Assembly (NCBI GenBank): GCA_039796475.1
Contig: JBDKJT010000058.1
Span: forward strand, 3,303-67,302
From: Bacteroidota bacterium
GTDB lineage: Bacteria; Bacteroidota; Bacteroidia; Chitinophagales; Chitinophagaceae
Reading direction: 5' to 3'
Length of the DNA: 64,000 nucleotides
Numbering within the stretch: the stretch's first letter is position 1; each line of letters starts with the position of its first letter. A program made the position numbers and the translations under genes. Below the pieces are notes generated by a model. The model was given only the letters and a program-made list of their open reading frames with translations. It was not told where the DNA came from and ran no database searches. Positions 616 through 19,490 of this stretch are shown here, piece after piece.

Positions 616-2688
616 ATGGCACACGCTTACACGAATAAACTGGCTTTAGAAACAAGCCCCTACCTGTTGCAACATGCTCATAACCCTGTAAACTGGTATC
701 CATGGGGAGAGGAAGCATTGCAACAAGCAAAAACCGACAACAAAGTGATACTGGTAAGTATAGGTTATTCAGCATGTCATTGGTGCCATGTAATGGAACG
801 GGAGAGTTTTGAAGATGTACAAACCGCCGAAATAATGAATGAGCATTTTATCAATATCAAAATAGATCGGGAGGAGCGACCTGACATTGATAATATTTAC
901 ATGGATGCAGTACAATACCTTACTGGCAGTGGCGGATGGCCTTTAAATGTATTTTTAACCCCCGATGCTCAGCCGTTTTATGGCGGCACCTATTATCCGC
1001 CAACCAATGCCTACAACAGGCCATCGTGGAAAGAAGTGCTGGCCGGTGTAGCCCAGGCATGGCAGCAACAAAAGGAGGCAGTATTAAGCCGGGCTGGGCA
1101 ACTAACCCAGCATGTTGAAAGTGCAGGTAATTTTGCTGTTACTATAAATACAACAGTATCTGTTACAGCGGAGGAATTGATAGCGCAGCAAAAAGAGATA
1201 TTGCACACTGTTATGCGTACTGCAGATACGCAATGGGGTGGGTTTGGCAAGGCTCCTAAGTTTCCACAAACAGCAACCATCCGGTATTTGCTCCAATACC
1301 ATTATTATACTGCCGACATACAGGCATTACAACAAGCATTGCTTTCGGTAAATAAAATGCTGCAGGGCGGTATTTACGATCATATAGGGGGAGGGTTGGC
1401 CCGGTACAGTACAGACAATGAGTGGCTGGCACCCCATTTTGAAAAAATGCTGTACGATAATGCATTGCTGCTACAACTATTGGCTGATGTATACCAGGTT
1501 ACCAGGGATGAGCATTATAAACAAGCTGCTGAAAGCATCATTAATTTTTTAAAAAACGAATTAGCTCATCCATCAGGCGGCTTTTATGCAGCCCTCGATG
1601 CAGATAGCGAAGGCATAGAAGGTAAATATTATGTATGGCAAAAGCAGGCGGTAGAAGAGATTTTAGGTACAGATGCCGGGCTTTTTTGCCAACTATTTGA
1701 CATTACCGATTCAGGAAACTGGGAGGGGGAGAATATACCCAGGTTGCTGGTGCCACTTAAAGAATTTGCTTTGCAACAACAATTGAACGAGCCTGATTTG
1801 CACAACACCATTAATAAATGCATAGCAAAACTCTTACAAGCCAGGCAGCAAAGGGTAAGGCCCGGATTGGATGATAAAATTATTGTAAGCTGGAATGCGC
1901 TGACGATTACCGCACTTGCAAAAGCAGCACGTGTTTTTAAAAACGATGAATATGCAGCACTGGCCAAACTCAATTACCAGTTTATATGTAAGCATTGCAA
2001 AGCCGAAAATGAATATGCCTTGCAGCATACCTGGAAAAACGGGCAGGCTAAACATCCTGGCTTTTTGGATGATTATGCCTTTTTAACCGAAGCAGCCATT
2101 GCCTTGTATGAGTTAACTTTTGAAGAGCAGTTTTTGCAGCAGTCCCTCGGCTATTGCCGGTATGCCATAGATAACTTTAGTGACGCTACTGGTTTGTTTT
2201 TTTATTATACCAGCAGCCAGCAACAGGATGTAATTGTAAGAAAAAAAGAAATTTATGATGGTGCTACCCCCTCTGCTAATGCCATCATGGCTGCCAATTT
2301 GCAAAAATTAGGCATATTGTTTGACATACCAGATTGGCAACAACGGGCAACGGCAATGCTGGCAGCATTAAACCAGGCCATCACAAAATACCCGGTGTCT
2401 TTTAGCAACTGGGCTTGCCTGTTATTACAACAGGTGAGGAGTGTTAATGAAATTGCTTTTGCAGGCACAAAGGCTGCTGCAAGTGCTGATACTTTTTTAT
2501 CCAATCATTATATACCGGGTAAAATTGTAGCAGTGCTAAATACTATAAATCATCAAATACCGTTTTTAAATGATAAGCCGGTAAACAATGTATTAAGTAT
2601 ATACCTCTGTAAAAAACAGGCTTGTGCAGCACCTGTAAAAAATGAGCAACAACTAATATCATTAATAAATACAATAGATAAATTTTAA
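616..2688 (+). CDS. thioredoxin domain-containing protein (DUF255 / YyaL / SSP411-like, with C-terminal six-hairpin glycosidase-like region)
   Basis: 690-aa ORF. The N-terminus [22 protein letters not shown]...[18 protein letters not shown] is the characteristic DUF255 thioredoxin-fold signature. Confidence 0.9.
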
Positions 2689-2837
2689 CAAGATTATACA
2701 CAATAAACAGGCAGTAGCTGCGTTTTTTCGGTAATCCGTTTTGTTATCTTTATGAAAATTTAAATTAGGTAAAAGTACTCAGAACGCATAAATCAAAATA
2801 ATCATTACATTTGCCAATACCCTCAAAGATTAAAACA

Positions 2838-4124
2838 ATGAAAAACAGAGTTAGCGTTTTCATAGCCTCAGTAGCTATTTTTTCCCTCGCTGGTTGTAGT
2901 AAAAACAACAAAGGCGGAGGAGCTCCGAATGACGGGCAGCTACATGGCGTAGCTCCTGCTTCTAAGTGGGCACTTCCAAAACCTCCCGGAATGGTGTATA
3001 TCCCTTCTGGTACTTTTCACATGGGCCCCAGCGATGAGGATATCAATTATGCCTATACCGCTCGTAACAAGCAGGTTTCTATCAGTGGTTTCTGGATGGA
3101 CGCTACCGAAATAACCAATAACGAGTATCGCCAGTTTACTAACTGGGTGAGAGACTCTATCGCTGCTAAAGAGATGGGTTTTATTAAGCAGGGTAAAGAT
3201 GGTAACGAATATATCGATTGGACCAAGGCCAAAACAATTAAATGGAATGACAAAGCCACTTTGGAAAAAATCGACAAATTGATTTTTACGCCGGATAACC
3301 GCATCTTTAATAAAAAAGAAATAGACCCAGCCAAACTGGTTTTTCACTCAGAAACCTTTGATTACAAAGAAGCATCCAGGAGAGAAAATGCCAGCGCACA
3401 GCGTTCTAAATTTATCGTTAAAAAAGACATTAAAATATACCCTGATACGCTTTGTTGGGTAAGAGATTTTTCTTACGCTTACAACGAGCCAATGAGCAAA
3501 AAGTATTATGGTCACCCAGCATTTGGTAACTACCCGGTAGTGGGTGTAAGCTGGCAGCAAGCCACTGCTTTTTGTGAATGGCGCACACATTATTTAAACT
3601 CTTTCCTTTCTTCAAAAAACAAATCTACCGAATCTGATTTCAGGCTGCCTACCGAGGCACAGTGGGAGTATGCTGCACGGGGCGGTCGCTCTCAATCGCC
3701 CTATCCATGGGGTGGTCCTTACCTGAGAAACAAAAAAGGTTGTTTGCTGGCTAACTTTAAACCTGGCCGTGGCAACTATCCGGAAGATGGTGGGTTTTAC
3801 ACTGTAAGGGCTGATGCCTATTGGCCAAACGACTTTGGTTTATACAACATGTCTGGTAATGTGGCAGAGTGGACCTCTTCACTATTTTACGAAGGCGGTT
3901 ATTCTTTTCAACACGATATGAATCCAGATATTCGCTGGAATGCTAAAGATTCTGACCCTCCCCGTATGAAGCGTAAAGTAGTACGTGGTGGTAGCTGGAA
4001 AGATGTTGGTTATTTCCTGCAGACAAGTACACGTAATTACGAGTATCAAGATACATCTAAGTCTTACATTGGCTTTCGTTGTGTGATTGATTTACCACCT
4101 TCAATGAAAAGAGGCGGTAAATAA
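2838..4124 (+). CDS. gldK: gliding motility / T9SS lipoprotein GldK (PorK), FGE-sulfatase (SUMF1) fold
   Basis: The start is moved to ATG 2838 (MKNRVSVFIASVAIFSLAGC, lipobox Cys), because the track start at 2811 is a TTG. SUMF1-like motifs are present (RGGSW, GFRCV). The gene lies directly upstream of gldL, gldM and gldN. Confidence 0.88.
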   Translation: MKNRVSVFIASVAIFSLAGCSKNNKGGGAPNDGQLHGVAPASKWALPKPPGMVYIPSGTFHMGPSDEDINYAYTARNKQVSISGFWMDATEITNNEYRQFTNWVRDSIAAKEMGFIKQGKDGNEYIDWTKAKTIKWNDKATLEKIDKLIFTPDNRIFNKKEIDPAKLVFHSETFDYKEASRRENASAQRSKFIVKKDIKIYPDTLCWVRDFSYAYNEPMSKKYYGHPAFGNYPVVGVSWQQATAFCEWRTHYLNSFLSSKNKSTESDFRLPTEAQWEYAARGGRSQSPYPWGGPYLRNKKGCLLANFKPGRGNYPEDGGFYTVRADAYWPNDFGLYNMSGNVAEWTSSLFYEGGYSFQHDMNPDIRWNAKDSDPPRMKRKVVRGGSWKDVGYFLQTSTRNYEYQDTSKSYIGFRCVIDLPPSMKRGGK

Positions 4125-4176
4125 ACCAGGCAGGCTTTCGCTATCATAAGTTTTCCTATTCAACTGCTTTATAGAA

Positions 4177-4222
4177 AGAAATTAATCTTTATGACGTTAT
4201 TAGAGCGTAAAGATTAATTTCT
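4177..4222 (+). repeat. perfect 15-bp inverted repeat (stem-loop) in the gldK-gldL spacer
   Basis: AGAAATTAATCTTTA (4177-4191) and TAAAGATTAATTTCT (4208-4222) are exact reverse complements separated by a 16-nt loop. No T-run follows the stem. Confidence 0.8.
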
Positions 4223-4287
4223 ATTCCATAAATAAATAAACTATTCCTTTAAATAATCCCCAATTAAAAATCTAAAATCTTAAAATC

Positions 4288-5052
4288 ATGGCTGCTAAAA
4301 AAAGAACATTTTTAACCTTGATTGATGTACTGGTAAGTGCCGGTGCTGCTGTAATTATCTTTGCTGCCTGGGCAAAAATCACTCACCAGTCTTATGCAAA
4401 CTCAATGCTTACCATAGGTATGTGGACGGAGACCGCCATCTTTGCTGTATATGCTATCATAGAATGGGTTAAGCCAAAATCACACGACGAAGAACATGCA
4501 CCTGCAGCTGCTGTACCAGCTGGTAACCCAGCTTTAAAATCATTGGATAAAATGATACAGGAAGCAGATATTACCCCAACTAATCTTAAAAAATTAGGCG
4601 AAGGTTTCCAAAAATTAGGATCAACTGTTAATGGCCTTGCCGATGTGGGTGATGTAGTAAAATCTACCAGCGATTTTGGTGCAAAAACTAAAGAAGCTAC
4701 ACAGGCAATTGGTACAATGGCCAATGCATTTAGTAACAGTGCAGCTACCATGGCTTCCTTTAATAATGCATCAGAAAGTGCTAAAGGCTTTCATGAGCAA
4801 GTGCAGGTATTAACCAAAAATTTAGGTTCGCTGAATACAATTTATGAATTGGAATTAAAAGAAAGCAACAACCACCTGAAAGCGTTAAATGGTTTCTATG
4901 GCAAAATGGCCGAAGCAAGCCAGGCAATGATGAGCAGCGTGGACGATGCCAATAAAGCAAAAGATCAAATCGGTGCTTTAGCAAACAATTTAGGTAAGCT
5001 AAATTCCGTTTATGGTAATATGCTAAGTGCAATGCAGGGTGGTAACAAATAA
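4288..5052 (+). CDS. gldL: gliding motility / T9SS motor protein GldL (PorL)
   Basis: 254 aa with two N-terminal TM helices (VLVSAGAAVIIFAAWAKITH; TIGMWTETAIFAVYAI, carrying the conserved Glu). A coiled, Ala/Asn-rich cytoplasmic tail follows. Position in the gldKLMN order supports the call. Confidence 0.88.
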   Translation: MAAKKRTFLTLIDVLVSAGAAVIIFAAWAKITHQSYANSMLTIGMWTETAIFAVYAIIEWVKPKSHDEEHAPAAAVPAGNPALKSLDKMIQEADITPTNLKKLGEGFQKLGSTVNGLADVGDVVKSTSDFGAKTKEATQAIGTMANAFSNSAATMASFNNASESAKGFHEQVQVLTKNLGSLNTIYELELKESNNHLKALNGFYGKMAEASQAMMSSVDDANKAKDQIGALANNLGKLNSVYGNMLSAMQGGNK

Positions 5053-5177
5053 TATACCCCTGTAGTAACAAAATAAATTAGCAGTCTTTTGGTTTTATAA
5101 TATCAGTCTGCTGCGTTATAACATGCAGGCTGATTATTCCAAACAATAAATTTAAACATCGTTAAATCTAAAATACT

Positions 5178-6701
5178 ATGGCTTTACCCAAAGAGCCCCG
5201 GCAGAAGATGATTAACATCATGTATTTGGTGTTAACAGCTATCCTGGCCCTTAACGTATCAGCAGAGATCCTGAATGCTTTTAAAGTAGTGGATTCAAGC
5301 CTGTTGAAATCAAACGTTGCAATTGATGGCTCCAACGATAATCTTTTAAAATCACTCCAGCAAAAACTGTCAAAACCCGAAACTGCAGAAAAAGCAGCCA
5401 TTTGGGCGCCCAAGGCAGAACAGGCCAGAAAAATGGCCGACCAGTTAATTGCTAAAATAGAACAATACAAAGACAGCCTTAAAAGAGCTTCTGGCTATGC
5501 TCCCGAAAAAGACCTGAAAACTTTTAAAGAGGATGATTTGGAAGCAGCTACAAGACTATTTATAGTAAACGGCAAAGGCCCGGAACTTAAAAAGGATCTT
5601 GAAAGTTTTAAATCGCAATTATTAGCACTCGATCCAAAAATCGGTGCTGAGTTTGCCAATAAACTTCCAATCGACTTAACCATTCCACCATCAACAACTG
5701 GTAGTGGCGAAAATACCTGGGAGTACAACTATTTTCACATGACGCCTACCATTGCAGCTTTAACCATCCTCAGCAAATTTGAGAATGATGTTAAAAATGC
5801 AGAAAACCAAGTGGTAACTTTTTGCCACAATCAAATTGGGCAGGTAGAAATCATTTACAACAAAGCTGTTGCATTGGTAAGCCAATCTGCTAACTATGTA
5901 ATGCCTGGCCAAAAAGTAAAAGTTAAAGCGGGTGTGGGCATTTTTAGTAGTGCAGCTGCGCCAAAAATCAGTATCGGTGGTCAATCTTTTAATGCAACAG
6001 AAGGTTATGCCGAAACTGAAATGGATGCTGGTGGTTCTGGTGTACACTCTATACCTGTAACCATTGTATACAAAGGCCAGGATGGTAAAGATGTAACGGT
6101 AACCGATAAGGTAGAGTATACCGTGGGTGTACCAGGCGGTGCAGCCATCATGCTTGATAAAATGAATGTGTTTTACATTGGTGTAGATAACCCCATTACT
6201 ATATCATCTGGCTCAGGCTGGGATAAAACAAATGTAAGCATGACGGGTGGAACACTTTCCGGCAGCGGATCAAACAGGGTAGTAAGGGTTACAACTCCGG
6301 GTACTGCTAAAATATCAGTAAACGCCGATGGTAAATCTAGCAACTTTGATTTTAGGGTAAAAACCATCCCCGATCCAATAGGAATGGTTGGCCCAAGCAA
6401 AGGAGGTCGTGTACAATCTAACGTGTTTAAAGCACAAGATTTTTTAAGGGCAGAGTTATTAAACTTTGATTTTGATGCCAAGTTTAATGTAACAGGCGCT
6501 ACCGTATATTTTGCTGGCGCAGGTTTCAGCACCGGTGGTGGTGTACAAACTGGTACATTAACTAGTGGCAGCCTTGCACCAATTAAAGCTAAAATGGATC
6601 TTTGCAAACCAGGCTCTACAGTTACTTTTGATGATTTGAAGGTAGTTGGTCCGGATGGTAGAACAAGAACAATTCCTCCAATATCATTTGTATTATTCTA
6701 A
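5178..6701 (+). CDS. gldM: gliding motility / T9SS protein GldM (PorM)
   Basis: The N-terminus PRQKMINIMYLVLTAILALNVSAEIL is the typical GldM signal-anchor. At 507 aa the size is right, and the gene order fits. Confidence 0.9.
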   Translation: MALPKEPRQKMINIMYLVLTAILALNVSAEILNAFKVVDSSLLKSNVAIDGSNDNLLKSLQQKLSKPETAEKAAIWAPKAEQARKMADQLIAKIEQYKDSLKRASGYAPEKDLKTFKEDDLEAATRLFIVNGKGPELKKDLESFKSQLLALDPKIGAEFANKLPIDLTIPPSTTGSGENTWEYNYFHMTPTIAALTILSKFENDVKNAENQVVTFCHNQIGQVEIIYNKAVALVSQSANYVMPGQKVKVKAGVGIFSSAAAPKISIGGQSFNATEGYAETEMDAGGSGVHSIPVTIVYKGQDGKDVTVTDKVEYTVGVPGGAAIMLDKMNVFYIGVDNPITISSGSGWDKTNVSMTGGTLSGSGSNRVVRVTTPGTAKISVNADGKSSNFDFRVKTIPDPIGMVGPSKGGRVQSNVFKAQDFLRAELLNFDFDAKFNVTGATVYFAGAGFSTGGGVQTGTLTSGSLAPIKAKMDLCKPGSTVTFDDLKVVGPDGRTRTIPPISFVLF

Positions 6702-6708
6702 AATTCTC

Positions 6709-7749
6709 ATGTATATGAAAAAGCATATCATACAGTTTGTCTTTTTTGCTTTCATCCTTTCGCTTTGCACCCAAAGTGCCCATGCGCAGAAAAAAAGCCG
6801 TACTGCAGTAAAAAGGTCAAATAATAAAACCGTTAAAAAAACAAAGGGTAAAACCAAAACAAGTGTTACCCCTCCTGCACAGGTTGATTCTGTAGCTACT
6901 GCGGTAGTAACACCCGAGCCAGCCAGGATAGACAGTTTGCCTATCGCAAAGATTAAAAAATCTTTAAGGCAGGATGAAGCGGTAGAAACCAAAGACATCA
7001 GGGACAGAACCCCACTTGCTTATGAGCACCTGCGGGTAGATGATGCGGTTTATCGCCACAAGGTGTGGAGAGAAATTGATGCAAGAGAAAAAATGAACCT
7101 GGCATTTAGATATGCTGCTGATGAAAATAATGGTAATCAGCGTTTCATTTCTATCCTGTTAAAAGCTGTACAAGATGGAGAGGTTACGGTGTTTGATCCC
7201 ATCGATGACCGTTTTACAACACCTCTAACCTTGTCTCAGGTTTCTAAAATGATTGGTGGTGGAAGCGACTCGGTACCACACTACGATCAAAATGGATTGG
7301 TTGATCGTTATGATCTTAAAGTGAGGGAAATAAACATGGACTCTTTCTACAAATTTAAAATTAAAGAAGAGGTAGTGTTTGATAAAGAAGCTTCCAGGCT
7401 GTTTTGGAGAATACTAGGTATTGCACCTGTAAGAAATGTATATAGCTCTGCTGGCGATTTTATCGGAACCCAGGATGTATTTTGGGTTTACTATCCTGAT
7501 ATGAGGTCGGTTTTTGCAAAATACGAGGTGTACAATCCTAAAAATTACGGCGCAAGAATGACTTGGGAAGAGCTGTTTGAAAACCGGTTATTTAGTGGCC
7601 GGATTATTAAAAGCACCTTGGATAATCCCTTCGATCTGCCTCTTTCTGCAGTGCCCGGTTTAAAAGACAGTGGCGTATTTCAATTGCTGGAAGGCGAAAG
7701 AATTAAAGAAAAGATTTTTAATTACGAATTAGATTTGTGGAGTTATTAA
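6709..7749 (+). CDS. gldN: gliding motility / T9SS protein GldN (PorN)
   Basis: The start is moved to ATG 6709 (MYMKKHIIQFVFFAFILSLCTQSAHAQ, a signal peptide), just after the gldM stop at 6701. It is the last gene of the gldKLMN block. Confidence 0.85.
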   Translation: MYMKKHIIQFVFFAFILSLCTQSAHAQKKSRTAVKRSNNKTVKKTKGKTKTSVTPPAQVDSVATAVVTPEPARIDSLPIAKIKKSLRQDEAVETKDIRDRTPLAYEHLRVDDAVYRHKVWREIDAREKMNLAFRYAADENNGNQRFISILLKAVQDGEVTVFDPIDDRFTTPLTLSQVSKMIGGGSDSVPHYDQNGLVDRYDLKVREINMDSFYKFKIKEEVVFDKEASRLFWRILGIAPVRNVYSSAGDFIGTQDVFWVYYPDMRSVFAKYEVYNPKNYGARMTWEELFENRLFSGRIIKSTLDNPFDLPLSAVPGLKDSGVFQLLEGERIKEKIFNYELDLWSY

Positions 7750-7993: not shown

Positions 7994-9814
7994 TTAGCCG
8001 TTGCTGCCCGGATGGTTATTAAAATGTGCTATTAGCACAGCAGCCCGCCGGGCTCCGGCTATCTTAGCAAGGCTTTCAAATGGTTGTTCCCTTATCTTTT
8101 TTACAGACTTAAATTGCTTAAGCAATTGGTCTGCTGTTGCTTTACCAATGCCCGGAATATTTTCAAGCTCATTTTTAAGTGCTCCTTTGCTGCGTTGGTT
8201 TCGGTGAAATGTAATGCCAAAACGGTGTACTTCATCCCTTATCCGCCGTATGAGTTTAAGGCTTTCGCTGTCCCATGGTAGCTTTAAAGACTCAGCGTCG
8301 CCCGGAAAAAAAATCTCTTCTTCATTTTTAGCCAATCCCACTACGGCTACCTTGCCCAGCAGGTTTAGCTGTTTGATGCTTATCATGGCAGCGCCTAATT
8401 GCCCTTTTCCACCATCAATAATAATCAATTGGGGTAAGGGTTGATTTTCATCAATCAGCCGCTTGTAACGCCTGTATACCACTTCTGTCATCGTGGCAAA
8501 ATCGTTAGGCCCAATTACAGTTTTTACATTAAAGCGCCTGTAATCTTCTTTACTCGGCTGGCCGTTTTTAAAACACACCATTGCAGATACTGGATAACTG
8601 CCCTGGAAATTACTGTTATCAAAACATTCAATGTGCAAAGGCAAAACGGGAAGGTGCAGGTACTGCTGCATTTGCTCTAACACCATTGTTACTTCATCGG
8701 CCTGCTTATGCTCCAGATGAAGCATTTTTTTTCGCTTCAGGTCTTCTTTAAAATAGTTTACATTTTTTTCCGAAAGTTCCAGCAGTTGCTTTTTGTCACC
8801 AGCTTTTGGTATGGTAACGTTAAGCGTACTATCGGCCAACTCAATTATAATCGGTACTATTATTTCTGTAGCCTCACTTTTAAAGGTTTCTCTTAAATGA
8901 GTTACCGCCAGGCTTAATACCTCGCTGGCCGGTTCATCCAGTTTTTTGGTAAGTGTAATGGTTTGTGTTAAAATAATAGCACCATTACTTACCGCCAGGT
9001 AATTTACATAAGCAGTGTCGCCCTCTTCTAAAATGCTAAAAACATCTACCGTGCCAAGTCGTTCGTTTACAACAGTTGATTTTGACCGGTATTGATGCAG
9101 GTATTCTAATTTTTTTTGAGTGATAGCAGCTTTTTCAAATGCCAGCTCCTGCACCTGCACCTGTAGCTGGTTTTTATAATGCTGTATTACCGGAGAGAGG
9201 TTGCCTTTTAAAATACTTTTTACCTGATCGAGCCCGTTGGCATAATCAGCTTCTGTTTGTAATGCTTCGCAGGGGCCTTTACAGTTGCCCAAGTGGTACT
9301 CCAGGCAAACTTTAAATTTGTTTTTATGGATGTTAGCAGGTGTTAAGTTTAGCTTGCAAGTACGCAGGGGCACATTTTGCTTAATAAAATCTAGCAGCTC
9401 CCTTACTTTACCCAGCGATGTAAATGGCCCCAGATACTCAGATCCGTCGTTAATTTTTCTTCGGGTAAAAAATACCCGGGGAAAATGTTCTTTTTTAATA
9501 ACGATATAGGGATAAGTTTTATCGTCTTTAAGGTTGATGTTAAAAACTGGTTGAAAATTTTTGATTAACGAGTTTTCCAGCAAAAAGGCATCCTGCTCAC
9601 TATTTACAATGGTAAACTCAATGCGATGGATGCGTTGCACCAGCTCATGTGTTTTGTAGCTGGTAAAAGTTTTTGAAAAATAGGAGCTTACTCTTTTGCG
9701 CAGGCTTTTAGCTTTACCCACATACAACAATTCATCATCTGCATTATAGTATTTGTAAATGCCCGGCTGCAGGGGGATGGTGGATGATATTTTAGAAAAC
9801 GCTTCCTGCGTCAT
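7994..9814 (-). CDS. uvrC: excinuclease ABC subunit C
   Basis: 606 aa with an N-terminal GIY-YIG motif (GIYKYYNADDELLYVGKAKSLRKRVSSYF). A UvrC endonuclease region and a C-terminal HhH motif (IPGIGKATADQLLKQF) are also present. Confidence 0.95.
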   Translation of the reverse strand: MTQEAFSKISSTIPLQPGIYKYYNADDELLYVGKAKSLRKRVSSYFSKTFTSYKTHELVQRIHRIEFTIVNSEQDAFLLENSLIKNFQPVFNINLKDDKTYPYIVIKKEHFPRVFFTRRKINDGSEYLGPFTSLGKVRELLDFIKQNVPLRTCKLNLTPANIHKNKFKVCLEYHLGNCKGPCEALQTEADYANGLDQVKSILKGNLSPVIQHYKNQLQVQVQELAFEKAAITQKKLEYLHQYRSKSTVVNERLGTVDVFSILEEGDTAYVNYLAVSNGAIILTQTITLTKKLDEPASEVLSLAVTHLRETFKSEATEIIVPIIIELADSTLNVTIPKAGDKKQLLELSEKNVNYFKEDLKRKKMLHLEHKQADEVTMVLEQMQQYLHLPVLPLHIECFDNSNFQGSYPVSAMVCFKNGQPSKEDYRRFNVKTVIGPNDFATMTEVVYRRYKRLIDENQPLPQLIIIDGGKGQLGAAMISIKQLNLLGKVAVVGLAKNEEEIFFPGDAESLKLPWDSESLKLIRRIRDEVHRFGITFHRNQRSKGALKNELENIPGIGKATADQLLKQFKSVKKIREQPFESLAKIAGARRAAVLIAHFNNHPGSNG

Positions 9815-9841: not shown

Positions 9842-10456
9842 TTATGGTGTGTCATTAAAATTCCATACAAGTTTAGTGTCTGATTGTAACTGGCTTTTGC
9901 CACCTGGATTGTGCAGGATGGTTACCATCCTTGCCCAATGATCTGTTTGCCACGTAAGTTGCTGTGTATAATGGCTGCCGTTTTGTTGTAATTGTTTAAC
10001 GATGTACACTTTTTTTATCTTGCCTGTTTCGGGGTTAACATAAATATCCCAGTGTTTAATACTTACCGAATCGGGCAGGGCAGCGGTGGCATCATGCGTA
10101 TATGTAATTGCGTCAATTGTTTGATCGTTAAACTTAGTTTGCTTAAAAAAGGCAGCTAGTTTTTCATCAATTATTGTATTGATAAAAGGCGCAAGTATAG
10201 TATGCACCTGCTCTTTTTTAATCCATACCGAGTCTGTATGATTGTTTGTGGTAATGGTTTGCAAAACGGTTACCGGTAAAGAGTCGAGTATTAGTAACTG
10301 ACCTTTTAAAAATGAAGTAACGGGTATATAAGTTGTACTGCTTGCCGTATCTTTTGTGGTGGCAGCACTTGTGTCTGTTACTGTGGTATCTGGTGTTTTA
10401 TTATTACAGGCGGCACAGGCAATGGCTATTGCCAGCAGAAAAATAGATGGCTTCAT
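9842..10456 (-). CDS. lipoprotein of unknown function
   Basis: MKPSIFLLAIAIACAACNNK is a lipoprotein signal with a lipobox Cys, followed by a Thr-rich linker. The gene lies on the same strand between the giant ORF (48-bp gap) and uvrC (27-bp gap). Confidence 0.7.
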   Translation of the reverse strand: MKPSIFLLAIAIACAACNNKTPDTTVTDTSAATTKDTASSTTYIPVTSFLKGQLLILDSLPVTVLQTITTNNHTDSVWIKKEQVHTILAPFINTIIDEKLAAFFKQTKFNDQTIDAITYTHDATAALPDSVSIKHWDIYVNPETGKIKKVYIVKQLQQNGSHYTQQLTWQTDHWARMVTILHNPGGKSQLQSDTKLVWNFNDTP

Positions 10457-10504: not shown

Positions 10505-13500
10505 TTACCCCAGCTCCTTACCAAGTTCAGTCTCTATTTTTTTGAGCGATATTGATAATGCTTTTGCTTTTGGTTGCTTAGTGCCAGCAATGGCTGTACG
10601 CAATAATTGCAGGTATTCGATACCATTATCAATTTTTACCCGGGCCCCCGTTTTTTTCCAATCTTTTTTTATGGCGGCTATAATGTCGGCCTCTTTAATG
10701 CTGCCTGCATGCAGGCATAGTTTTGCTAATAGTACATTGGCATGGTTTAATAAATCCCAAAATTCGTAATCTCTATCTGCATCGTTATCTGCCTCCAATG
10801 CTTTATCTAATAAGGCTTCAATTGTTTTTGCCGTTGGTAATTTGTATTTGTTTACCGATTGCTTGCCCCAGTTACTCTGAGGGTCATTTAGCACAAGCAA
10901 GCTTTCTAGTTGTATCCAGGTACAAAGTGGGTCTAGCAGCCCGCTATTATTTTTTCGGGCAATTTCGTAAGCAGCCCTGTATTCGGCTGCTGCTTTTTTA
11001 AGGGCATCTGTTTTGTCTGCAGGTTTAACACATTTAAGGAATAATATTTTGTATGCTGTGCCCAATAACAGGTGACGCTGGCAAGTGTCGCCTATCTTTA
11101 GTAAGTAGGCAAAATTGCTGATGATGGCTCTTACATCTTCTTCTGTTTTTTCGGGGGTATTACGAGTGGTTTTGATATTGAGGCTGCAAAGATTTTCTAG
11201 TACGCTCACTGTAAAGTCGGCTTCTTCAAATTTAAGCAATGCATTAATTTTATCAATCGCTGTATCCTGCTGGTTAAGGCCAATTAATATACGGGCTTCT
11301 ATTTCTGTTAGTGTACCATTGCGTATGGTGGCTTTATCAATTGCTTTACTAATTTGTTGTAATTCGGCGGCCATTTCGTCTTTTGTATACCTGCCAGATA
11401 ATACTTTGTTGTTAAGATTTACCAGGTCTATTTCAGCTTCCATGGGTATTACATAATTATAGGTTTTGTTTTTGTTACTCGTTTTAACGGTGAACTTGTA
11501 AAACTGGTCGCCATAGCATTGATAAGCGCCCCAGGTGTTGGTATGCGGATATTTTTCAAAACATTGGCTTCGGGCTTGTTGTACGGCTTCGCCAAAGCCT
11601 GCGCCATCAAACATTTCTTTATAAAATGTTTCAGAAAATAATAAGGCTGCATCATCATCTACCGCCCAGCCTGCAGCCACTACTGCTTTTACGCCCATTT
11701 CTATTAATTGTACTCCAATATTGGCGGCTAATTTATAATGCAGTTGTGCGTTGTTTTCTGCATCGCCATCTACCTTACCTAAAAAACAACAATTAATAAA
11801 TACAAACTCGGGCACCTGGCTCATTTGGTTTATTTCTTTGGCGGTAAGAAAAATATTATTGCCAATTACCATTCCTCCATTGTCGGATGCAGCATTGCCG
11901 CAGGGATCGTCTTTTTTAGCAGATTCAAAAAAACCATGCCCTGCCAGGTGAATAATTTTGTATTCAGTTTCAAACAATGCTTGCAGGGTTTGTGCAAAGG
12001 GGCCTTTTATTTTGGTGGTTACTTTATACTCGTAATTGCTAATGATTGCTGCCACCGTTTTAGCCTCCTGGGCTGCGCCGGGTAGCTGGCATACAAAGCC
12101 CTCTGTATCGGGGTCGCCAATTACAAGGGCATTATTGGCATACGATCTTTTTATTTGGGTGCGGTAATCGGCAGTGGCCAATTGCCTTATCATGCCGGCG
12201 CTTACACACAGCGGTTTAGATTGTGTGGCACTGTCTTGCAATAACTCCCAGGGAAAAGCAGCGGAGTGCTTATCAAGCCGCCATAGTATATTGTACTGGT
12301 TACGTACGGCATCTTTAAAATCATTGGGTATCAGTAATTCAAAAACAGTTTTTGCCAGCTGTGGCGACCAATGATCATTGCCCGATATTTCATCAATAAA
12401 ATGCTGAATGATTACGGGGTTGCTATTAAGATTTCGCACTTCTTCCCTTGCTGCACCGGTAGAGGCGCTAAATTTAAGATAATAGTTAGGTGCTGTTTCT
12501 ACATTTACCGATACCCGTTGCCACCAGTCTTGCTGGTAATCGAGCGGTACTCTTTTTCTGCTACCCGGCATGCGCCTTATTTTATTATTGGGTACCACAA
12601 TGTTTAGTTGCTGATCGGCTTCTAATTTTTTGAGTGTATAAAAAGCCTGCAGCGACCTGTCTTCGTATAGCTCAATCAATTCAATATGATCTATCTTTTT
12701 TAGCGAGGGATTGTTTAAACTAAGTATGCTTTCATTTGCTTTTTTTACACCAAGTATGATGGATTTTAGTGAGCTCTCAATGCTAAGGCCGCCATAGCCA
12801 CAACCAACCATGATAGCTGTAATACCTACGCCGCCGGGAAACAGGGCGGTATAGGCCTCTTGATGTTCGGCCTCAAATTCTCTTAATTCAAGCAGGTATT
12901 TGCTTACACCTTGCGTTACGCTTAGCTCTAGCTGGTAGCCATTAAGTTCTCCCAATTCGCCCAGGCCTACAATGATGCCGCCATGTGGGGTTACGTAGGC
13001 AGATAAAAATATTTCGCTGGTACCCACCCGGCCGGGATATAGGCCTAAGGCATGTTTTTCTCTTAGCATGCCGTTAAAGCAGGTATCCAGCACTTTTTCG
13101 GCACTCATTATGCCATCTTTATAAAAATGACCTGCCAGCACCGGATACATGGCTGTACCCAAATCGCCATTGGTAATGCTTAGTTTTAAAGGGCTGGCAG
13201 TTTCTACTACCTGCTCTGTATGTTTAACACCCAGTATTATTTTTTCGATATTGCCTGCATCTACTGGCACTAAATCGTACCGGGGATTATCAAAAAGCTG
13301 GCTGCCACTGCGGCTGGCTGGCGGTGTTTTACTAAGCTGGCTGGTGGTGCCGGTTTGTAATAGCTCAGTAATGGCGCCAAAGCAATCGGGGTTGTTGGCA
13401 AGCTCGCCATGTTCGGTAGTGCAGTAATACACTGCATTGCGCTGTACCAGTTGGATGGGTATGCCGCTTGCCCAGGTAACACTGCCATCACCCTCAGCCG

Positions 13501-15814
13501 TACTTTTAAATACCAGGCTATTATCCCTGCCGGCAGCATCTATTTGGTAAGTAGCTGTAGTGGCATCTGATTTACCCGCTATGTAAATAATGTTTCGATA
13601 ATCGAGTTTGTCTTTATTGGCTAATACCTTATCTCTAAATTGGGCAAAGCCGCTTAGTATGCCGGCTGCTGGCATGCTGCCAATATTTTTTGAGTTATCA
13701 AAAATATCCTGCCAAGTTTTGGCTTTAGAAAAATCATGCGGTTTGTCTTGCAGCGGCAGTAAGTTGTACATGCCAGGATATTGTGAAAATATTTTAAGCA
13801 GTGCTTTTTTATCATGTTTAAGATCTATCATGCTTAGTTTGCTAATATTACCTCCCCGGCCGCTTAGGGCTTCTGGTATAAGGTATGAGCCACCAAGCGG
13901 TGCACCTAAAAAAACGGCTTTAAAACCAGTGCTGTTGTTAAGTGTATCCCAATGCTTGCCGGTTATCATAAACTGCCTGAAGAGTACGCCGCCCATGCTA
14001 TGTGCAATTACATGGATGGGTTGTTTTTTATCCAGCAAAAATTTAATACAGTCGTCAAGCAATTGGGCTGCCTCATCCAATGATTTGCGCCAGTCGTAAG
14101 CAAATGTTACCACATCGTATTGCTTTGATAAATGCACCGCCAGCTTACGGTAACCACTACCCATTAATGAGGGGGCGGTAATATCCGGTGCATCAATATC
14201 CAGTTGGGTAAGTTCGCCTTTTACAAAACTCCAAAAGTCTACCCAAATTTTATTATCTAACCGGTACAGGTTAGAGCCCATAATGCCGGGCATTATAATG
14301 GCTATTGGTTTTTTGCCACTTACTTTATCTGCGGTTAATCTTACTTCGGGTGTAATAAATGGCAATGCTGCATTGCGGTTGGCATCAGCCAAATCGGCTT
14401 CTTGCAGTGTTTTAAATCCGGGTATGCTATCGCCTTCGGCTTTAAGGGCACGGGTAATGGCTTCCTGCGAATCTTTACTTCTAAAATAATGTATGTGATC
14501 GGCCGCCTTGGAGTCGTCCATAAAAAAGCAGGTATCTTTTTTTCGACGGGTACCAAAATACATCGACCAGGTGTCTACCACCATATCGTTTTTGCGCCTA
14601 AAGTATAGTTTGGTTAAAATTACCAGCAGGGCTTTTAGCTCTGCATGTATGCGGCAATTACCACTTAGTACGGTAAGGGGGCTATCAATGATGTTGGCAG
14701 GGTTATTCAGCATTTTAATAAATACCGAGTCGGGCACCATTGCTTCTACCCCTGGCAACACTTCTACCTTTGCTTTGGTGGCTGCTGCTTCGGCCAGTAG
14801 TTTTTTTAAGCCGATATAAATTGGGTTGCTGGCAGCACCTGTACTAATGCCAATAAAGTTTAGCAGGGTGTTAAGGTAATGATCCAACCTGTCGGAAAGC
14901 AGCGATGTGCCCATAGAGGGGCTGGCCACCCGTATAAATTTTTGTACGGTTATTTGTTTTTGTTTGGCCGTGCTATTGATAGCCTGCATAGCAATATTGT
15001 GTGCAGTGCCATCAGCATATAATTCAAGCTCTTCGTCTGTAAAACCAATGCAGTTATTGCTGGCATTACAGCGTGCAATAATATCGCCTACTAATCCGCC
15101 GCGGCTGTGCGATATAAGGTGAAGGCTGCTTTTTTCTGGCAAAAGTTTTAGCAGTTCCAGTGCATTATCTAATGGAGATATGGTAAGGGTTTTGTGATCA
15201 AAAGCCAGTATGTTATCGCCGTAGGCAGCGGTTATATGGTTCCATAAACCAAATTGCCTGAAATCTGCCAGATCGCCAAAAGCGCCTTCGGTATTGGAGT
15301 TGGTGCCATGTATTAACAATAAAAAGGGCTTACCGTTGGTAGTAAGGTTTGTTGCTGTTCTTTTTCTAAATACACTATCAACCAGGTAAAGGCCGGGTTG
15401 TGGTTGTACTTTGTCTTCCAGCTTTTGGGCAATCTCTTTTATAGTAGCATTTACAATAGTGCTGGTTTTTTTTCTGAAGAATGAGAATAAGTTGATGGCG
15501 AGGTCTTGTAAAATATTTCGGCCGGTAGTGCTTTGTAACGATGTGGGCACTTCAAAGCCATCCTCATCCATGGCCCTTTTAGTGTCTATATTAAATATTT
15601 CCTGAAACTCTGTGGCATTGCCCATCCATGTGCTGCTGTCTTCAAAATGTATCTCTACAATATCATTTTCGTTGTGTACTTCAATTTCTTGCCGGGTGGC
15701 CTGGCTACGGGTTTTGGAGATGACTACTGATTTTACTAATTCAAAATCGTCCAATTCTGTTGCGGATGGGGCAGATTGGGTTACAGTTCCGTTTACAATA
15801 AGTTTACGAAGCAT
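10505..15814 (-). CDS. giant multidomain protein: two lipase-type alpha/beta hydrolase domains + unassigned module + CHAT (caspase-like) protease domain + helical-repeat tail
   Basis: Uninterrupted 1769-aa ORF with no signal peptide and no T9SS CTD. Hydrolase 1 spans aa ~163-445 (FLLLIHGT; ISHSRGG S237; NDMVVD D410; ADHIHYF H440/H442). Hydrolase 2, LCAT/PGAP1-like, spans aa ~502-805 (IIMPGIMGS; FAYDWR; IAHSMGG S606; EGDGSV D776; TEHGEL H802). The CHAT domain spans aa ~1150-1440 (FELLIPNDF; IIHLAGHG H1293; FVFINCCFLG C1342/C1343; AAGWAVDD). Residues aa ~1450-1769 are helical repeats. Confidence 0.85.
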   Translation of the reverse strand: MLRKLIVNGTVTQSAPSATELDDFELVKSVVISKTRSQATRQEIEVHNENDIVEIHFEDSSTWMGNATEFQEIFNIDTKRAMDEDGFEVPTSLQSTTGRNILQDLAINLFSFFRKKTSTIVNATIKEIAQKLEDKVQPQPGLYLVDSVFRKRTATNLTTNGKPFLLLIHGTNSNTEGAFGDLADFRQFGLWNHITAAYGDNILAFDHKTLTISPLDNALELLKLLPEKSSLHLISHSRGGLVGDIIARCNASNNCIGFTDEELELYADGTAHNIAMQAINSTAKQKQITVQKFIRVASPSMGTSLLSDRLDHYLNTLLNFIGISTGAASNPIYIGLKKLLAEAAATKAKVEVLPGVEAMVPDSVFIKMLNNPANIIDSPLTVLSGNCRIHAELKALLVILTKLYFRRKNDMVVDTWSMYFGTRRKKDTCFFMDDSKAADHIHYFRSKDSQEAITRALKAEGDSIPGFKTLQEADLADANRNAALPFITPEVRLTADKVSGKKPIAIIMPGIMGSNLYRLDNKIWVDFWSFVKGELTQLDIDAPDITAPSLMGSGYRKLAVHLSKQYDVVTFAYDWRKSLDEAAQLLDDCIKFLLDKKQPIHVIAHSMGGVLFRQFMITGKHWDTLNNSTGFKAVFLGAPLGGSYLIPEALSGRGGNISKLSMIDLKHDKKALLKIFSQYPGMYNLLPLQDKPHDFSKAKTWQDIFDNSKNIGSMPAAGILSGFAQFRDKVLANKDKLDYRNIIYIAGKSDATTATYQIDAAGRDNSLVFKSTAEGDGSVTWASGIPIQLVQRNAVYYCTTEHGELANNPDCFGAITELLQTGTTSQLSKTPPASRSGSQLFDNPRYDLVPVDAGNIEKIILGVKHTEQVVETASPLKLSITNGDLGTAMYPVLAGHFYKDGIMSAEKVLDTCFNGMLREKHALGLYPGRVGTSEIFLSAYVTPHGGIIVGLGELGELNGYQLELSVTQGVSKYLLELREFEAEHQEAYTALFPGGVGITAIMVGCGYGGLSIESSLKSIILGVKKANESILSLNNPSLKKIDHIELIELYEDRSLQAFYTLKKLEADQQLNIVVPNNKIRRMPGSRKRVPLDYQQDWWQRVSVNVETAPNYYLKFSASTGAAREEVRNLNSNPVIIQHFIDEISGNDHWSPQLAKTVFELLIPNDFKDAVRNQYNILWRLDKHSAAFPWELLQDSATQSKPLCVSAGMIRQLATADYRTQIKRSYANNALVIGDPDTEGFVCQLPGAAQEAKTVAAIISNYEYKVTTKIKGPFAQTLQALFETEYKIIHLAGHGFFESAKKDDPCGNAASDNGGMVIGNNIFLTAKEINQMSQVPEFVFINCCFLGKVDGDAENNAQLHYKLAANIGVQLIEMGVKAVVAAGWAVDDDAALLFSETFYKEMFDGAGFGEAVQQARSQCFEKYPHTNTWGAYQCYGDQFYKFTVKTSNKNKTYNYVIPMEAEIDLVNLNNKVLSGRYTKDEMAAELQQISKAIDKATIRNGTLTEIEARILIGLNQQDTAIDKINALLKFEEADFTVSVLENLCSLNIKTTRNTPEKTEEDVRAIISNFAYLLKIGDTCQRHLLLGTAYKILFLKCVKPADKTDALKKAAAEYRAAYEIARKNNSGLLDPLCTWIQLESLLVLNDPQSNWGKQSVNKYKLPTAKTIEALLDKALEADNDADRDYEFWDLLNHANVLLAKLCLHAGSIKEADIIAAIKKDWKKTGARVKIDNGIEYLQLLRTAIAGTKQPKAKALSISLKKIETELGKELG

Positions 15815-15979
15815 AGTGTTGTTTTATTTGAGGTTACTTTGTGGGCGGAGGTAAACAACACCAGGGTGTGGATGACAATCAGCAGAAAATTAAGCTATTT
15901 ATTTTATTTGTCATAGTCTAAATCACTATTTCTCAATATAATGGATAGGATGCAGGCAATGGATAGTAACAGTAAGGGC

Positions 15980-16047
15980 AAAAAAAGAAACCATCAAGTT
16001 TTGTTTATATCCAGTTTGCACTGTTTACTTACTAACCCGATGGTTTC
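15980..16047 (-). terminator. long-loop hairpin plus T7 run downstream of the DUF1330 gene (minus strand)
   Basis: GAAACCATC (15987-15995) pairs with GATGGTTTC (16039-16047), a 9-bp stem around a 43-nt loop. Seven A follow on the plus strand (15980-15986), which is T7 on the minus strand. This would separate the DUF1330 transcript from the giant ORF. Confidence 0.4.
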
Positions 16048-16221
16048 GTGGTTACATTTTATCTTTTTATGGATTACTTGTAACCTTCAGAAAACTTACT
16101 TTTTGTTTCCAAAAATTTCGTCTTCATTATTGTTCTATAAAGGTATACAGGTGGCAAGCTGGTTGCAAGTTTTTTGCTGTGTTGTTTTGCACCCCTTTAG
16201 CACATAGTTATGCACAACCTG

Positions 16222-17012: not shown

Positions 17013-17606
17013 TTAACGGGCGTATATGCCGTTGGGCGATACTACACTGGCGGGGCCGCCGGTAATACCAACCGGTGGAATATAAAGGGGGATGGATTGT
17101 CCGTTTACGGCAAGGGTAACCTTTTTTGCATGCAGCTCTACTCCTTGTTGGTAAAAAGGCGGCATTGCTGCAGGTGGCCTGTTAATAAGGTATGGTTCAC
17201 TAAAATCTGTCATTTCTACTTTAAAAATATATCCGTTTACCTCACAAGTTGCAATAGCTATGCTGGTATTAATAAATATGCTGATTGCGGCTGTAAATAC
17301 CGGGGCATGCTCAAAAGGTGTGCCTGCAAAAATATTGGGTCCAAAATATTTTGCTGTTGCTTCATCTGTGCTTACAAAACCCATTACAAGTGGTGCTAAC
17401 TGTGGGTTAGGCTGCCACAAAATCATGCCGCTGGCGGCACTGCCTGCCGGCGTGTGTACCATGCGGCCTAAATGTATAATAATATTGGGGGCTTGCAGGC
17501 CGGGGCTGGTGGCAGCTACTAAATCAATGCCTCCCTCCCAGCTCATCCATTTTAAAACATTACTCATGCTGATATCATTTATTAGGTGTGATAGTGAAAG
17601 TAACAC
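17013..17606 (-). CDS. hypothetical protein (no recognisable family)
   Basis: 197-aa ORF with no TM helix and no signal peptide. The alternative start MSNVLKW at 17567 is possible. It occupies the space where the 5' part of the adjacent YpdA-like remnant should be. Confidence 0.5.
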   Translation of the reverse strand: MLLSLSHLINDISMSNVLKWMSWEGGIDLVAATSPGLQAPNIIIHLGRMVHTPAGSAASGMILWQPNPQLAPLVMGFVSTDEATAKYFGPNIFAGTPFEHAPVFTAAISIFINTSIAIATCEVNGYIFKVEMTDFSEPYLINRPPAAMPPFYQQGVELHAKKVTLAVNGQSIPLYIPPVGITGGPASVVSPNGIYAR

Positions 17607-18030: not shown

Positions 18031-18966
18031 TTATAGCCCAGGTGCTACATCATTATAGGTGGCCGCTGCATTGCCAATTCTTACATCATCTATATACACC
18101 ACTCTTTTGGTAGTGCTGGAGGTAAATGTACCCGACTTCCAGGCCCATTTGTAAATGCCGGCTTTCATATAAGCGCCATAGGTAAGGCCACTGTAAATAT
18201 TTTTACCTGTTTTACTAAATACTTTTACACCACCTTTCCAAATTTCTATCAAGCCATCAGCACCTGCCGACCATTTGATGTGAAATACAAAATCGGTCCA
18301 CTTATTTCTTTCATAATTGCCAATAACGGTGCTGGTGGTACCAAATTGTACAATCTTCCATTGGCCTTTATGCGTCCACAAAGCCAGCGGTGGATTGCCG
18401 CCCACTGTTGTATGCCACTGGGTTAAAATTTCCGGAGCATTATCACTTACAAACTCACTGGGCAAATAATAGCTGCTGCCATACCACCGCTCTACATAAG
18501 GTATTTTTTCGTCCCTTGAAAAACGGTTGCTTTCAGTTCTTTTGCTGCTGGCCACATCAGCATCTGTTTTATTTAACTCATACCGGGTAGCATAACTGCC
18601 TGATCTTGAGTAGGCTGTTGAACGCTGTATTGAATGCGTACAGCATTTAGCCAGTGTGTTCCAATAACTGGTTGAGTAAGCAGTTAAAGCAGTTAAAGAA
18701 TTGGATAATTCAGTGGTGTAATTAAACAACAGATTTTTTCTTACATACGCTGCTTCTGGCATTGCTGTATTACCGGCAATACCTGTTTCATTAAATGTGT
18801 TTAACACAGTGTCAATCGATAAAACATCATCCTGCGGAAGACTTAATTCATCCGCTTGTTCCAACTGGATAAAAGCAGCGTCATTTTTTTTACAACTAAT
18901 CATTGTTGTTGCCATTACACAACAGAGCATAGCAATGCCACATAGTACTGATCTACGATTTTTCAT
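18031..18966 (-). CDS. polysaccharide-lyase-like (heparin lyase I / PF14099-type concanavalin fold) lipoprotein
   Basis: The start is moved to MKNRRSVLCGIAMLCCVMATTMISC (lipobox). The C-terminal half reads ...TQWHTTVGGNPPLALW...WTDFVFHIKWS...GLIEIWKGGVKV...AYMKAGIYKW...VYIDDVRIG, which resembles the polysaccharide lyase PF14099 pattern. Confidence 0.55.
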   Translation of the reverse strand: MKNRRSVLCGIAMLCCVMATTMISCKKNDAAFIQLEQADELSLPQDDVLSIDTVLNTFNETGIAGNTAMPEAAYVRKNLLFNYTTELSNSLTALTAYSTSYWNTLAKCCTHSIQRSTAYSRSGSYATRYELNKTDADVASSKRTESNRFSRDEKIPYVERWYGSSYYLPSEFVSDNAPEILTQWHTTVGGNPPLALWTHKGQWKIVQFGTTSTVIGNYERNKWTDFVFHIKWSAGADGLIEIWKGGVKVFSKTGKNIYSGLTYGAYMKAGIYKWAWKSGTFTSSTTKRVVYIDDVRIGNAAATYNDVAPGL

Positions 18967-19490
18967 ATTATTGAATTTTTTTCCCCAAAAAAACAATCAT
19001 CATGCCAAGCAAACTGCAGCAGTAGGTATTAGGAAAGCCCTAACATTTACCAAGGCAGTTTGCACCAAAAAAAATAAACCGATGTTTGAACTTTATATAA
19101 CTCGTTTAGTATTTGTTACACATTTACTTTATGAGTAATGAAAGAGATTTGAAGTGATAAAAAATAGTTTCTAAATGTGAATAAGTTTTAAAATGGCCAA
19201 TTTTTTACGAGTGGCTTGTAGCGTTGTAGCCTGTTGTAAGCTTTGCTGGTAAAGGGTTGTAGCGGCTGTGTTTATTTAGTTTTTGCCTTTTGCAGCTATC
19301 CAAAAAACTAATTTGATGAATTTTGTTTTTAGAGGCAACAAAAAGCATTGCTATTTTGATGTTGCACATCAAGCGTTATAAAGGCTGATTTTTTGTAGTG
19401 TTTTTATTGGTTGTAAAGGCCTGTTTTCAATAATGGATAGCAGCGATAATTCTGCCAACTTTATTTTATCTTCAAAACAAAATTGTAGCT

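Follow-up and report, generated by a model that had tools for sequence, protein, structure and literature searches.

A 64,000-nucleotide stretch of DNA from a Bacteroidota bacterium of the Chitinophagaceae (GenBank assembly GCA_039796475.1, contig JBDKJT010000058.1, positions 3,303 to 67,302; hereafter, the window) contains a giant gene that joins, on a single 1769-residue chain, two lipase-like α/β-hydrolases, a module modeled as a macro fold, a CHAT protease domain, and a variable helical tail. We consider it probable, at roughly 60%, that this gene encodes a fused cytoplasmic sensor–protease–effector protein of biological conflict, that is, of immunity or regulated cell death. A preliminary description of the same DNA, made from the letters alone, had already proposed a conflict system. 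This proposal gains from the patchiness of the family, its presence on plasmids, its varied neighbors, its fusions to nSTAND1 and TIR domains, and its caspase neighbors, and it loses from the lack of a defense island at the window locus and of any PADLOC match.

Domain Organization of the Giant Protein

The gene is an intact open reading frame (ORF) on the minus strand, with an ATG start and 1769 codons followed by a stop codon at 10505–10507; the uninterrupted 1769-codon frame of the preliminary description was confirmed at 10505..15814. The ORF and its parts, with the basis of each assignment, are as follows.

10505..15814, minus strand: whole ORF (ORF call; same Pfam set in full-length homologs)
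15335..15814, minus strand: N-terminal β-rich domain, residues 1–160 (AlphaFold2, predicted local distance difference test (pLDDT) 71; poorly conserved)
14477..15328, minus strand: hydrolase 1, DUF7379 α/β-hydrolase, residues 163–446, triad S237/D410/H440 (Pfam PF24096)
14309..14476, minus strand: linker 1, residues 447–502, with the invariant R480 (alignment)
13379..14308, minus strand: hydrolase 2, LCAT/LPLA2-like, residues 503–812, triad S606/D776/H802 (Pfam PF02450)
13199..13378, minus strand: linker 2, residues 813–872, predicted to be disordered, with P-x-x-R835-[G/S/D] (AlphaFold2 and alignment)
12560..13198, minus strand: predicted macro-fold/leucine-aminopeptidase-N-like domain, residues 873–1085 (AlphaFold2 and Foldseek)
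12365..12559, minus strand: bridge, residues 1086–1150, with the basic motif G-x-[RK]-[KE]-R-[LV]-P and the invariant W1097/W1098 (alignment)
11495..12364, minus strand: CHAT clan-CD protease domain, residues 1151–1440, H1293 and C1343 (Pfam PF12770)
10508..11494, minus strand: helical TPR-S-type tail, residues 1441–1769, the most variable part (family alignment)

A Pfam scan of the giant protein found DUF7379 (PF24096) from residue 165 (E 1.8e-33, 116.5 bits against a 33-bit cutoff), LCAT (PF02450) at residues 565–696 (E 2.6e-10, 40.5 bits against a 21-bit cutoff), and CHAT (PF12770) at residues 1153–1436 (E 1.4e-30, 107.2 bits against a 24-bit cutoff), with the CHAT match spanning profile positions 3–289 of 289. 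The two hydrolases and the CHAT domain that had been recognized from the letters alone were, in this way, all recovered above their cutoffs. Furthermore, every residue number that had been assigned to them proved correct: the triad of hydrolase 1 lies in motifs beginning at residues 236 (HSRGG, S237), 409 (NDMVVD, D410), and 438 (ADHIHYF, H440), that of hydrolase 2 in motifs beginning at 605 (HSMGG, S606), 774 (EGDGSV, D776), and 800 (TEHGEL, H802), and the CHAT residues H1293 and C1342/C1343 in AGHG (from 1291) and INCCFLG (from 1340).

When the single giant protein was used to search the PDB by sequence, no match was found; the family profile alone gave LCAT and lipase matches, namely 7x2p, a "putative lipase" (E 2.5e-4), for hydrolase 1 and LCAT 4xx1 and LPLA2 4x90 (E ~1e-6) for hydrolase 2. 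Like LCAT and LPLA2, hydrolase 2 scores above the PF02450 family cutoff and keeps the Ser-Asp-His triad. Unlike them, it aligns only over the nucleophile core (residues 565–696) and belongs to a cytoplasmic bacterial multidomain protein. The N-terminal 160 residues were modeled by AlphaFold2 as a β-rich domain plus a helix, with low-confidence loops at residues 80–82 and 100–102, and a Foldseek search of the PDB with this domain gave no structural match (best E 0.49).

The protein had been described as cytoplasmic and free of export signals, and our analysis agrees. A hydrophobic N-terminus or transmembrane segment was looked for and not found (the maximum Kyte–Doolittle value for a 19-mer was 1.47), and neither a signal peptide nor a C-terminal domain of the type IX secretion system (T9SS) was found by Pfam and hydropathy.

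Conservation of the Catalytic Core

A homolog search yielded 239 proteins. Most of the 120 listed are full-length (~1770 residues) and share the Pfam domains of the giant protein; Chitinophagaceae, Flavobacterium, and Algoriphagus are their sources, with identity down to 36%. Conservation was evaluated in an alignment of 28 full-length homologs (36–72% identity). The α/β-hydrolases and CHAT are fused in all 28, and each has a DUF7379 match. Both Ser-Asp-His triads, H1293, and C1343 are invariant, and C1342 is conserved in at least 90% of the sequences; the catalytic residues singled out in the preliminary description therefore hold up across the homologs. The invariance of the hydrolase triads points to selection for catalysis. 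The alignment likewise indicates that the His–Cys dyad of the CHAT domain is present and conserved, and protease activity is predicted.

Conservation is distributed unevenly along the chain. Compared with distant homologs, identity is 52% in CHAT, 44–45% in the hydrolases, 41% in the middle module, and 25% in both the N-terminal 160 residues and the 329-residue tail. CHAT is the most conserved domain, with 60 invariant columns, and the tail has 2 in 329. As judged from these sequences, the giant protein is a constant catalytic core flanked by two variable ends.

The tail had been described simply as helical repeats. It is indeed helical, and the family alignment allows a closer assignment. In the window protein, the TPR-S profile (PF20308) matched residues 1518–1620 weakly (19.2 bits, under the 27.6-bit cutoff), and the family profile gave a weak match to the TPR region of Cdc23. 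Because the aligned tail matches TPR-S in 27 of the 28 homologs, with E values down to 3.9e-14, the window tail is best read as a divergent TPR-S; it is the putative sensor.

A Macro-Type Fold Predicted for the Middle Module

The middle module was modeled by AlphaFold2 as residues 815–1150, and its core, roughly residues 875–1085, was confident (pLDDT ~90); the bridge that follows (residues 1086–1150) had low confidence. A Foldseek search of the PDB returned a probability of 1.00 and 88 matches at E ≤ 1e-3. Among the best 50 of these 88, nearly all were macro domains, leucine aminopeptidase (LAP) N-domains, or designed hydrolases apparently on a macro-type scaffold. The closest were the LAP N-domains 6ome and 3jru (E 1.4e-6), and the macro matches included MacroD2, macroH2A, the nsP3 macro domain of Venezuelan equine encephalitis virus, and PARP14 macro domain 1 (E ~1e-5, TM-score on the target 0.65–0.73). 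In the viral library BFVD, the module matched macro-domain proteins of coronaviruses, rubella virus, and phages.

At the sequence level, a 1000-residue relative with the layout LCAT–X–CHAT (L041) matched Peptidase_M17_N (PF02789) in the equivalent region, with 31.8 bits against a 23.4-bit cutoff; no Peptidase_M17_N or macro profile of Pfam matched the window protein or the 28 Bacteroidota homologs. By eye, NGDL falls at the place of GDIT, GCGYGG at that of G-[VI]-[YF]-G, and VGLGE at that of the LAP-N motif vGlGk. For the segment that the preliminary description had left unassigned, these models and comparisons indicate a macro/leucine-aminopeptidase-N fold.

Candidate Cleavage Sites and Proposed Mechanism

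Could the CHAT protease act on the very chain that carries it? The alignment contains isolated arginines that are invariant or nearly so, stand within otherwise poorly conserved stretches, and are followed by a small residue: R36, R80, R99, R480, and R835. The residue after R36 is G, S, or D, that after R80 is S, G, or D, and that after R99 is G in 19 of the 28 sequences; the model of the N-terminal domain places R80 and R99 in loops of low confidence. R480 occupies the linker between the two hydrolases in the context [D/N]-R-[N/G/A]. Position 835 is Arg in 25 of the 28 sequences, with Gly as the commonest next residue (15), and falls in a predicted disordered stretch of linker 2, with pLDDT below 50 over residues 829–850. 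We regard these arginines, R480 and R835 in the linkers among them, as candidate cleavage sites.

A precedent exists in caspase-activated hydrolases. Evans et al. (2025, bioRxiv 10.1101/2025.11.14.688446) showed that LcCaspase cuts the LcHydrolase zymogen at a pair of conserved R|G sites, with killing by the precisely cut fragments alone, and a bacterial defense caspase was found to be strictly Arg-specific (Rousset et al., bioRxiv 10.1101/2024.10.24.620036). By analogy, the conserved Arg–small-residue sites of the giant protein resemble the R|G sites of this α/β-hydrolase zymogen.

It is plausible that the TPR-S tail would recognize a trigger, or possibly that the macro-fold domain would bind a ligand, and that either event would turn the CHAT protease on. 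CHAT would then cut, in cis or in trans, after R36, R80, R99, R480, and R835 in exposed loops and linkers, where the next residue is Gly, Ser, Asn, Asp, or Ala. Such cleavage would free or unlock the two latent hydrolases, which might attack ester-linked, probably membrane-lipid, substrates and lead to the arrest or death of the infected cell.

Modularity of the Family and Caspase Partners

An HMMER scan with the middle module found at least 1331 cluster representatives (clusters at 50% identity) at E ≤ 1e-3, and architectures were counted in 144 of the representatives listed. About 100 of the 144 have the order hydrolase 1–hydrolase 2–macro–CHAT; ~16 have hydrolase 2–macro–CHAT, with or without a tail, at recurring lengths of ~1250–1310 residues; and ~19 have macro–CHAT, again with or without a tail, at ~950–970 residues. 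Wherever the sequence continues, the macro module is always followed by CHAT. As far as these sequences tell, macro–CHAT is the constant core, to which two, one, or no hydrolases are joined at the N-terminus.

The module has been recombined with diverse immune sensors. In addition to the TPR-S of 27 of the 28 homologs, Pfam scans of selected members found nSTAND1 in the 2387-residue P0159 (nSTAND1–DUF7379–LCAT–macro–CHAT–TPR-S) and trypsin and TIR domains in P0182 (macro–CHAT–trypsin–TIR). P0124 is a genuine stand-alone macro–CHAT–TPR-S gene; the possibility that it was half of a split gene was rejected, as the gene upstream is unrelated to the hydrolases.

Separate caspase genes accompany several family members. 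A Peptidase_C14 gene of ~280–320 residues adjoins the giant gene at five loci (L015, L018, L024, L032, and L033), usually directly upstream, and the L019 locus ends with a similar gene, ~2 kb downstream. In a Saprospiraceae metagenome-assembled genome (MAG; L021), a C14 protein and a fusion of C14 with DUF7379 come after the giant gene. Stand-alone LCAT-like hydrolases also adjoin caspases (L054 and L074). The presence of a separate caspase gene beside the CHAT protein in proteobacterial and actinobacterial relatives suggests a cascade. In the window, tblastn detected no caspase gene or remnant, and no paralog of the giant gene was found. In a Pseudomonadota MAG (L036, 17722–20835), the gene for a second protein, of 1037 residues with TPR repeats and a CHAT domain (CHAT E 1e-46), lies 2 kb downstream of the homolog of the giant gene; it may be a tandem CHAT paralog.

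Could the protease, rather than the lipases, be the executioner? The macro-fold domain might be the receptor of an ADP-ribose-like second messenger, in which case CHAT itself would kill by degrading proteins after Arg, and the hydrolases would be auxiliary effectors or regulators. The macro–CHAT core is invariant and occurs without any hydrolase, bona fide macro domains that bind ADP-ribose are among the structural matches of its macro fold, and in P0182 a TIR domain is part of the same chain, all of which would suit such a scheme. Thoeris supplies a precedent: the Macro domain of type II perceives His-ADP-ribose (His-ADPR), and N7-cADPR activates a promiscuous Arg-specific caspase-like protease in type IV (bioRxiv 10.1101/2024.10.24.620036). 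On the other hand, the best structural matches are LAP N-domains, which are not known to bind ADP-ribose, and the lone sequence-level match is to Peptidase_M17_N and not to Macro. Furthermore, no signal-producing TIR or cyclase gene is conserved beside the family in the neighborhoods examined, and an auxiliary role for the hydrolases sits poorly with their invariant triads. We therefore consider an executioner protease of this kind unlikely.

The receptor idea can also be combined with release of the lipases. An ADP-ribose-like or nucleotide-derived immune signal, bound by the macro-fold domain, might allosterically gate CHAT, and self-processing would then release the two lipases. We hold this version to be speculative and improbable as well; if true, the family would constitute a new class of small-molecule-gated caspase-like proteases, in which one protein serves as a Thoeris- or CBASS-type receptor (CBASS, cyclic-oligonucleotide-based antiphage signaling system), a caspase cascade, and a membrane effector.

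Distribution and Mobility

Full-length relatives with ~30% identity were found in Nitrospirales, in Alpha-, Beta-, and Gammaproteobacteria, in Acidobacteriota, and in Mycolicibacterium senegalense and Heliomicrobium, a homology-based distribution that is patchy across phyla. Relatives occur on 22 plasmids, and near-full-length ones (at least 76% of the query) on those of Azotobacter, Ensifer, Paracoccus, and Burkholderia. On the mobilizable 76-kb plasmid NZ_CP066312.1 of Azotobacter chroococcum, the homolog stands beside HsdS and HsdM of a type I restriction–modification system; its flanks also hold two Fic genes, transposases of IS701, IS630, and IS5, and a recombinase. No homolog was found in phage genomes.

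The neighborhoods of the giant gene in Flavisolibacter, Terrimonas, Flavobacterium pallidum, and Algoriphagus have nothing in common. In F. pallidum (L086, 2561–7002), SIR2_2 and then nSTAND1–WD40, a defense-type pair, lie upstream of the homolog, with one 264-residue gene of no known family between. On a Paracoccus yeei plasmid (L093, 3631–6915), only 38 bp separate the homolog from the end of a preceding gene on the same strand, whose product, a 1094-residue "transporter substrate-binding domain-containing protein", may be a lineage-specific partner.

Comparison with Known Systems

Kaur et al. (2020, PMC7159879) reported that a caspase domain in their conflict systems never occurs without an α/β-hydrolase, and predicted an obligate pairing of the two in MoxR-vWA/VMAP ternary systems. 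Compared by domain type, the giant protein is analogous to these caspase/hydrolase modules: lipase-like hydrolases are physically coupled to a protease of the caspase superfamily, the sensors (STAND or repeats) are interchangeable, conserved Arg-Gly-type candidate sites occur in segments predicted to be exposed, and relatives of both hydrolase types adjoin or are fused with Peptidase_C14. It differs in being one 1769-residue chain with CHAT in place of C14, with two different hydrolases, an obligatory macro-fold domain before CHAT, and a putative TPR-S sensor. We read it as most likely a fused, single-gene form of these recently described protease–effector modules.

Csx29 is the TPR-CHAT protein of type III-E CRISPR systems. 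In type III-B CRISPR, SAVED-CHAT activates PCaspase in a proteolytic cascade (bioRxiv 10.1101/2023.06.23.546230). The giant protein shares with both a CHAT protease that would serve as a switch joined to a sensor domain. Unlike SAVED-CHAT, it has no SAVED domain (the PADLOC SAVED_CHAT model gave E 0.056) and has its effectors fused to CHAT, and no caspase adjoins it in the window. No CRISPR-like repeats or genes turned up in the window or the related loci examined, where no dedicated search for cas genes or repeats was run. Type II and type IV Thoeris use a macro fold and a caspase-like protease as effector parts, and by analogy Arg-specific cleavage is plausible here; unlike Thoeris, the giant-gene family has no conserved TIR partner, and its macro fold is closest to LAP N-domains.

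Annotation of family members does not go beyond the generic "CHAT domain-containing protein" or "DUF7379 domain-containing protein". Our literature search found nothing relevant on DUF7379 or TPR-S and no paper describing the family. Nor did we find a description of the one-chain architecture, the twin hydrolases, the replacement of the C14 caspase by CHAT, or the obligatory macro-fold domain. The preliminary description had called the architecture undescribed, which is right for the fused layout and the macro module; the logic of a protease with an α/β-hydrolase was already known from Kaur et al. and Evans et al.

Proteolysis-gated death effectors have lately been recognized as a dominant logic of bacterial immunity, and the present family is large (at least 1331 clusters), spans several phyla, occurs on plasmids, and is absent from PADLOC. 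With sensor, protease, and two effectors in one chain, the protein would be a compact model for asking how CHAT is switched on, whether the lipases are licensed by self-cleavage at Arg-Gly sites, and what the macro fold contributes. The catalytic residues, together with the predicted cleavage sites, make each of these questions directly testable.

Genomic Context in the Window and Close Relatives

The giant gene lies exactly at the edge of a gliding/T9SS block (616–7749, plus strand), which is followed by uvrC (7994–9814, minus strand) and is syntenic across Ferruginibacter. The DsbH-like thioredoxin, the FGE-sulfatase (GldK-like), and GldL of this block were named by synteny with annotated relatives; GldM, GldN, and uvrC were scanned in the window itself. 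The preliminary description had placed the giant gene next to uvrC. uvrC is indeed downstream, with one further ORF between the two:

9842–10456, minus strand: 204-residue lipoprotein ORF (lipoprotein-type N-terminus MKPSIFLLAIAIACAAC; no Pfam family)

In the closest relatives (~70% identity), the order DUF4870–DUF1330–giant gene–lipoprotein–uvrC–gldNML is stable, and the giant gene thus behaves as a long-term resident of the subclade. In Ferruginibacter lapsinanis, Ferruginibacter sp. SUN002, and the MAG L091, the lipoprotein–uvrC–gld block is intact and the giant gene is absent, its place being taken by an extracytoplasmic function (ECF) sigma factor and another gene. Its absence from the same uvrC site in congeners indicates that the giant gene is accessory at the genus level. 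A variable or defense-island-like neighborhood had been named as a check on the conflict proposal: the neighborhood is variable between genera, and it is syntenic within the gene's own subclade and not a defense island in the window.

Several of these observations weigh against a conflict role. The window neighborhood is metabolic and housekeeping in character (DUF1330, DUF4870, uvrC, and gld genes), the GC profile at the giant gene is native with no sign of an island, the gene order of the closest relatives is stable, and most homolog neighborhoods are not defense islands. In addition, no PADLOC-DB 2.0 model matched the window protein (best SAVED_CHAT, E 0.056), NCBIfam gave nothing useful for it, its tail misses the TPR-S cutoff, and the conserved arginines could be structural instead of cleavage sites. 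The stable subclade position, native GC, non-defense neighborhoods, and lack of a PADLOC match would all be expected of a nonimmune enzyme for regulated lipid remodeling in stress or development, which would act on endogenous lipids and use CHAT and TPR in regulatory or scaffold roles, as in HetF-type CHAT proteins. Such an enzyme is harder to reconcile with a family that is patchy across phyla, plasmid-borne, and missing from congeners, whose relatives include nSTAND1 and TIR fusions and pairings with caspases, and whose tail is hypervariable, as for a sensor under diversifying pressure. We find a nonimmune role doubtful, and a fused conflict protein remains our preferred reading.

Periplasmic lipoproteins are typical immunity proteins of lipase effectors. 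Could the giant protein be an exported antibacterial or anti-eukaryotic phospholipase toxin, that is, a polymorphic effector of the type VI secretion system or the T9SS, with the 204-residue lipoprotein as its immunity protein? It has two lipase-type domains, and the lipoprotein ORF is co-directional and starts 48 bp downstream. However, the giant protein has no signal peptide, transmembrane segment, or T9SS C-terminal domain, and its associations with protease, STAND, TIR, and TPR-S domains are signatures of intracellular immunity. The lipoprotein belongs to the uvrC–gld block, including in genomes that have no giant gene, and is missing beside homologs in other genera; we regard an exported toxin as very unlikely. 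The lipoprotein ORF has 130 matches, apparently confined to Ferruginibacter-like genomes, and always lies directly upstream of uvrC, in genomes with and without the giant gene alike. It was rejected as a partner or immunity gene, since it stays with uvrC–gldNML in genomes without the giant gene.

Upstream of the giant gene is a 407-bp intergenic stretch (15815–16221), which contains an 88-residue ORF (15941–16207, plus strand) with no family match. A scan for promoters and terminators was uninformative, and the sigma-70 consensus is unsuited to Bacteroidota. Finally, in a relative whose giant gene is 71% identical (L081), a gene for a 622-residue Peptidase_C14 protein (2799–4667) and a divergent one for a 489-residue TPR protein (1283–2752) lie ~5–7 kb upstream of the giant gene. 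The window counterpart of this stretch holds an ORF of no family (17013–17606) and a polysaccharide lyase gene (18031–18996). The stretch from DUF4870 to the FGGY kinase gene is therefore variable and able to hold another caspase-type system.

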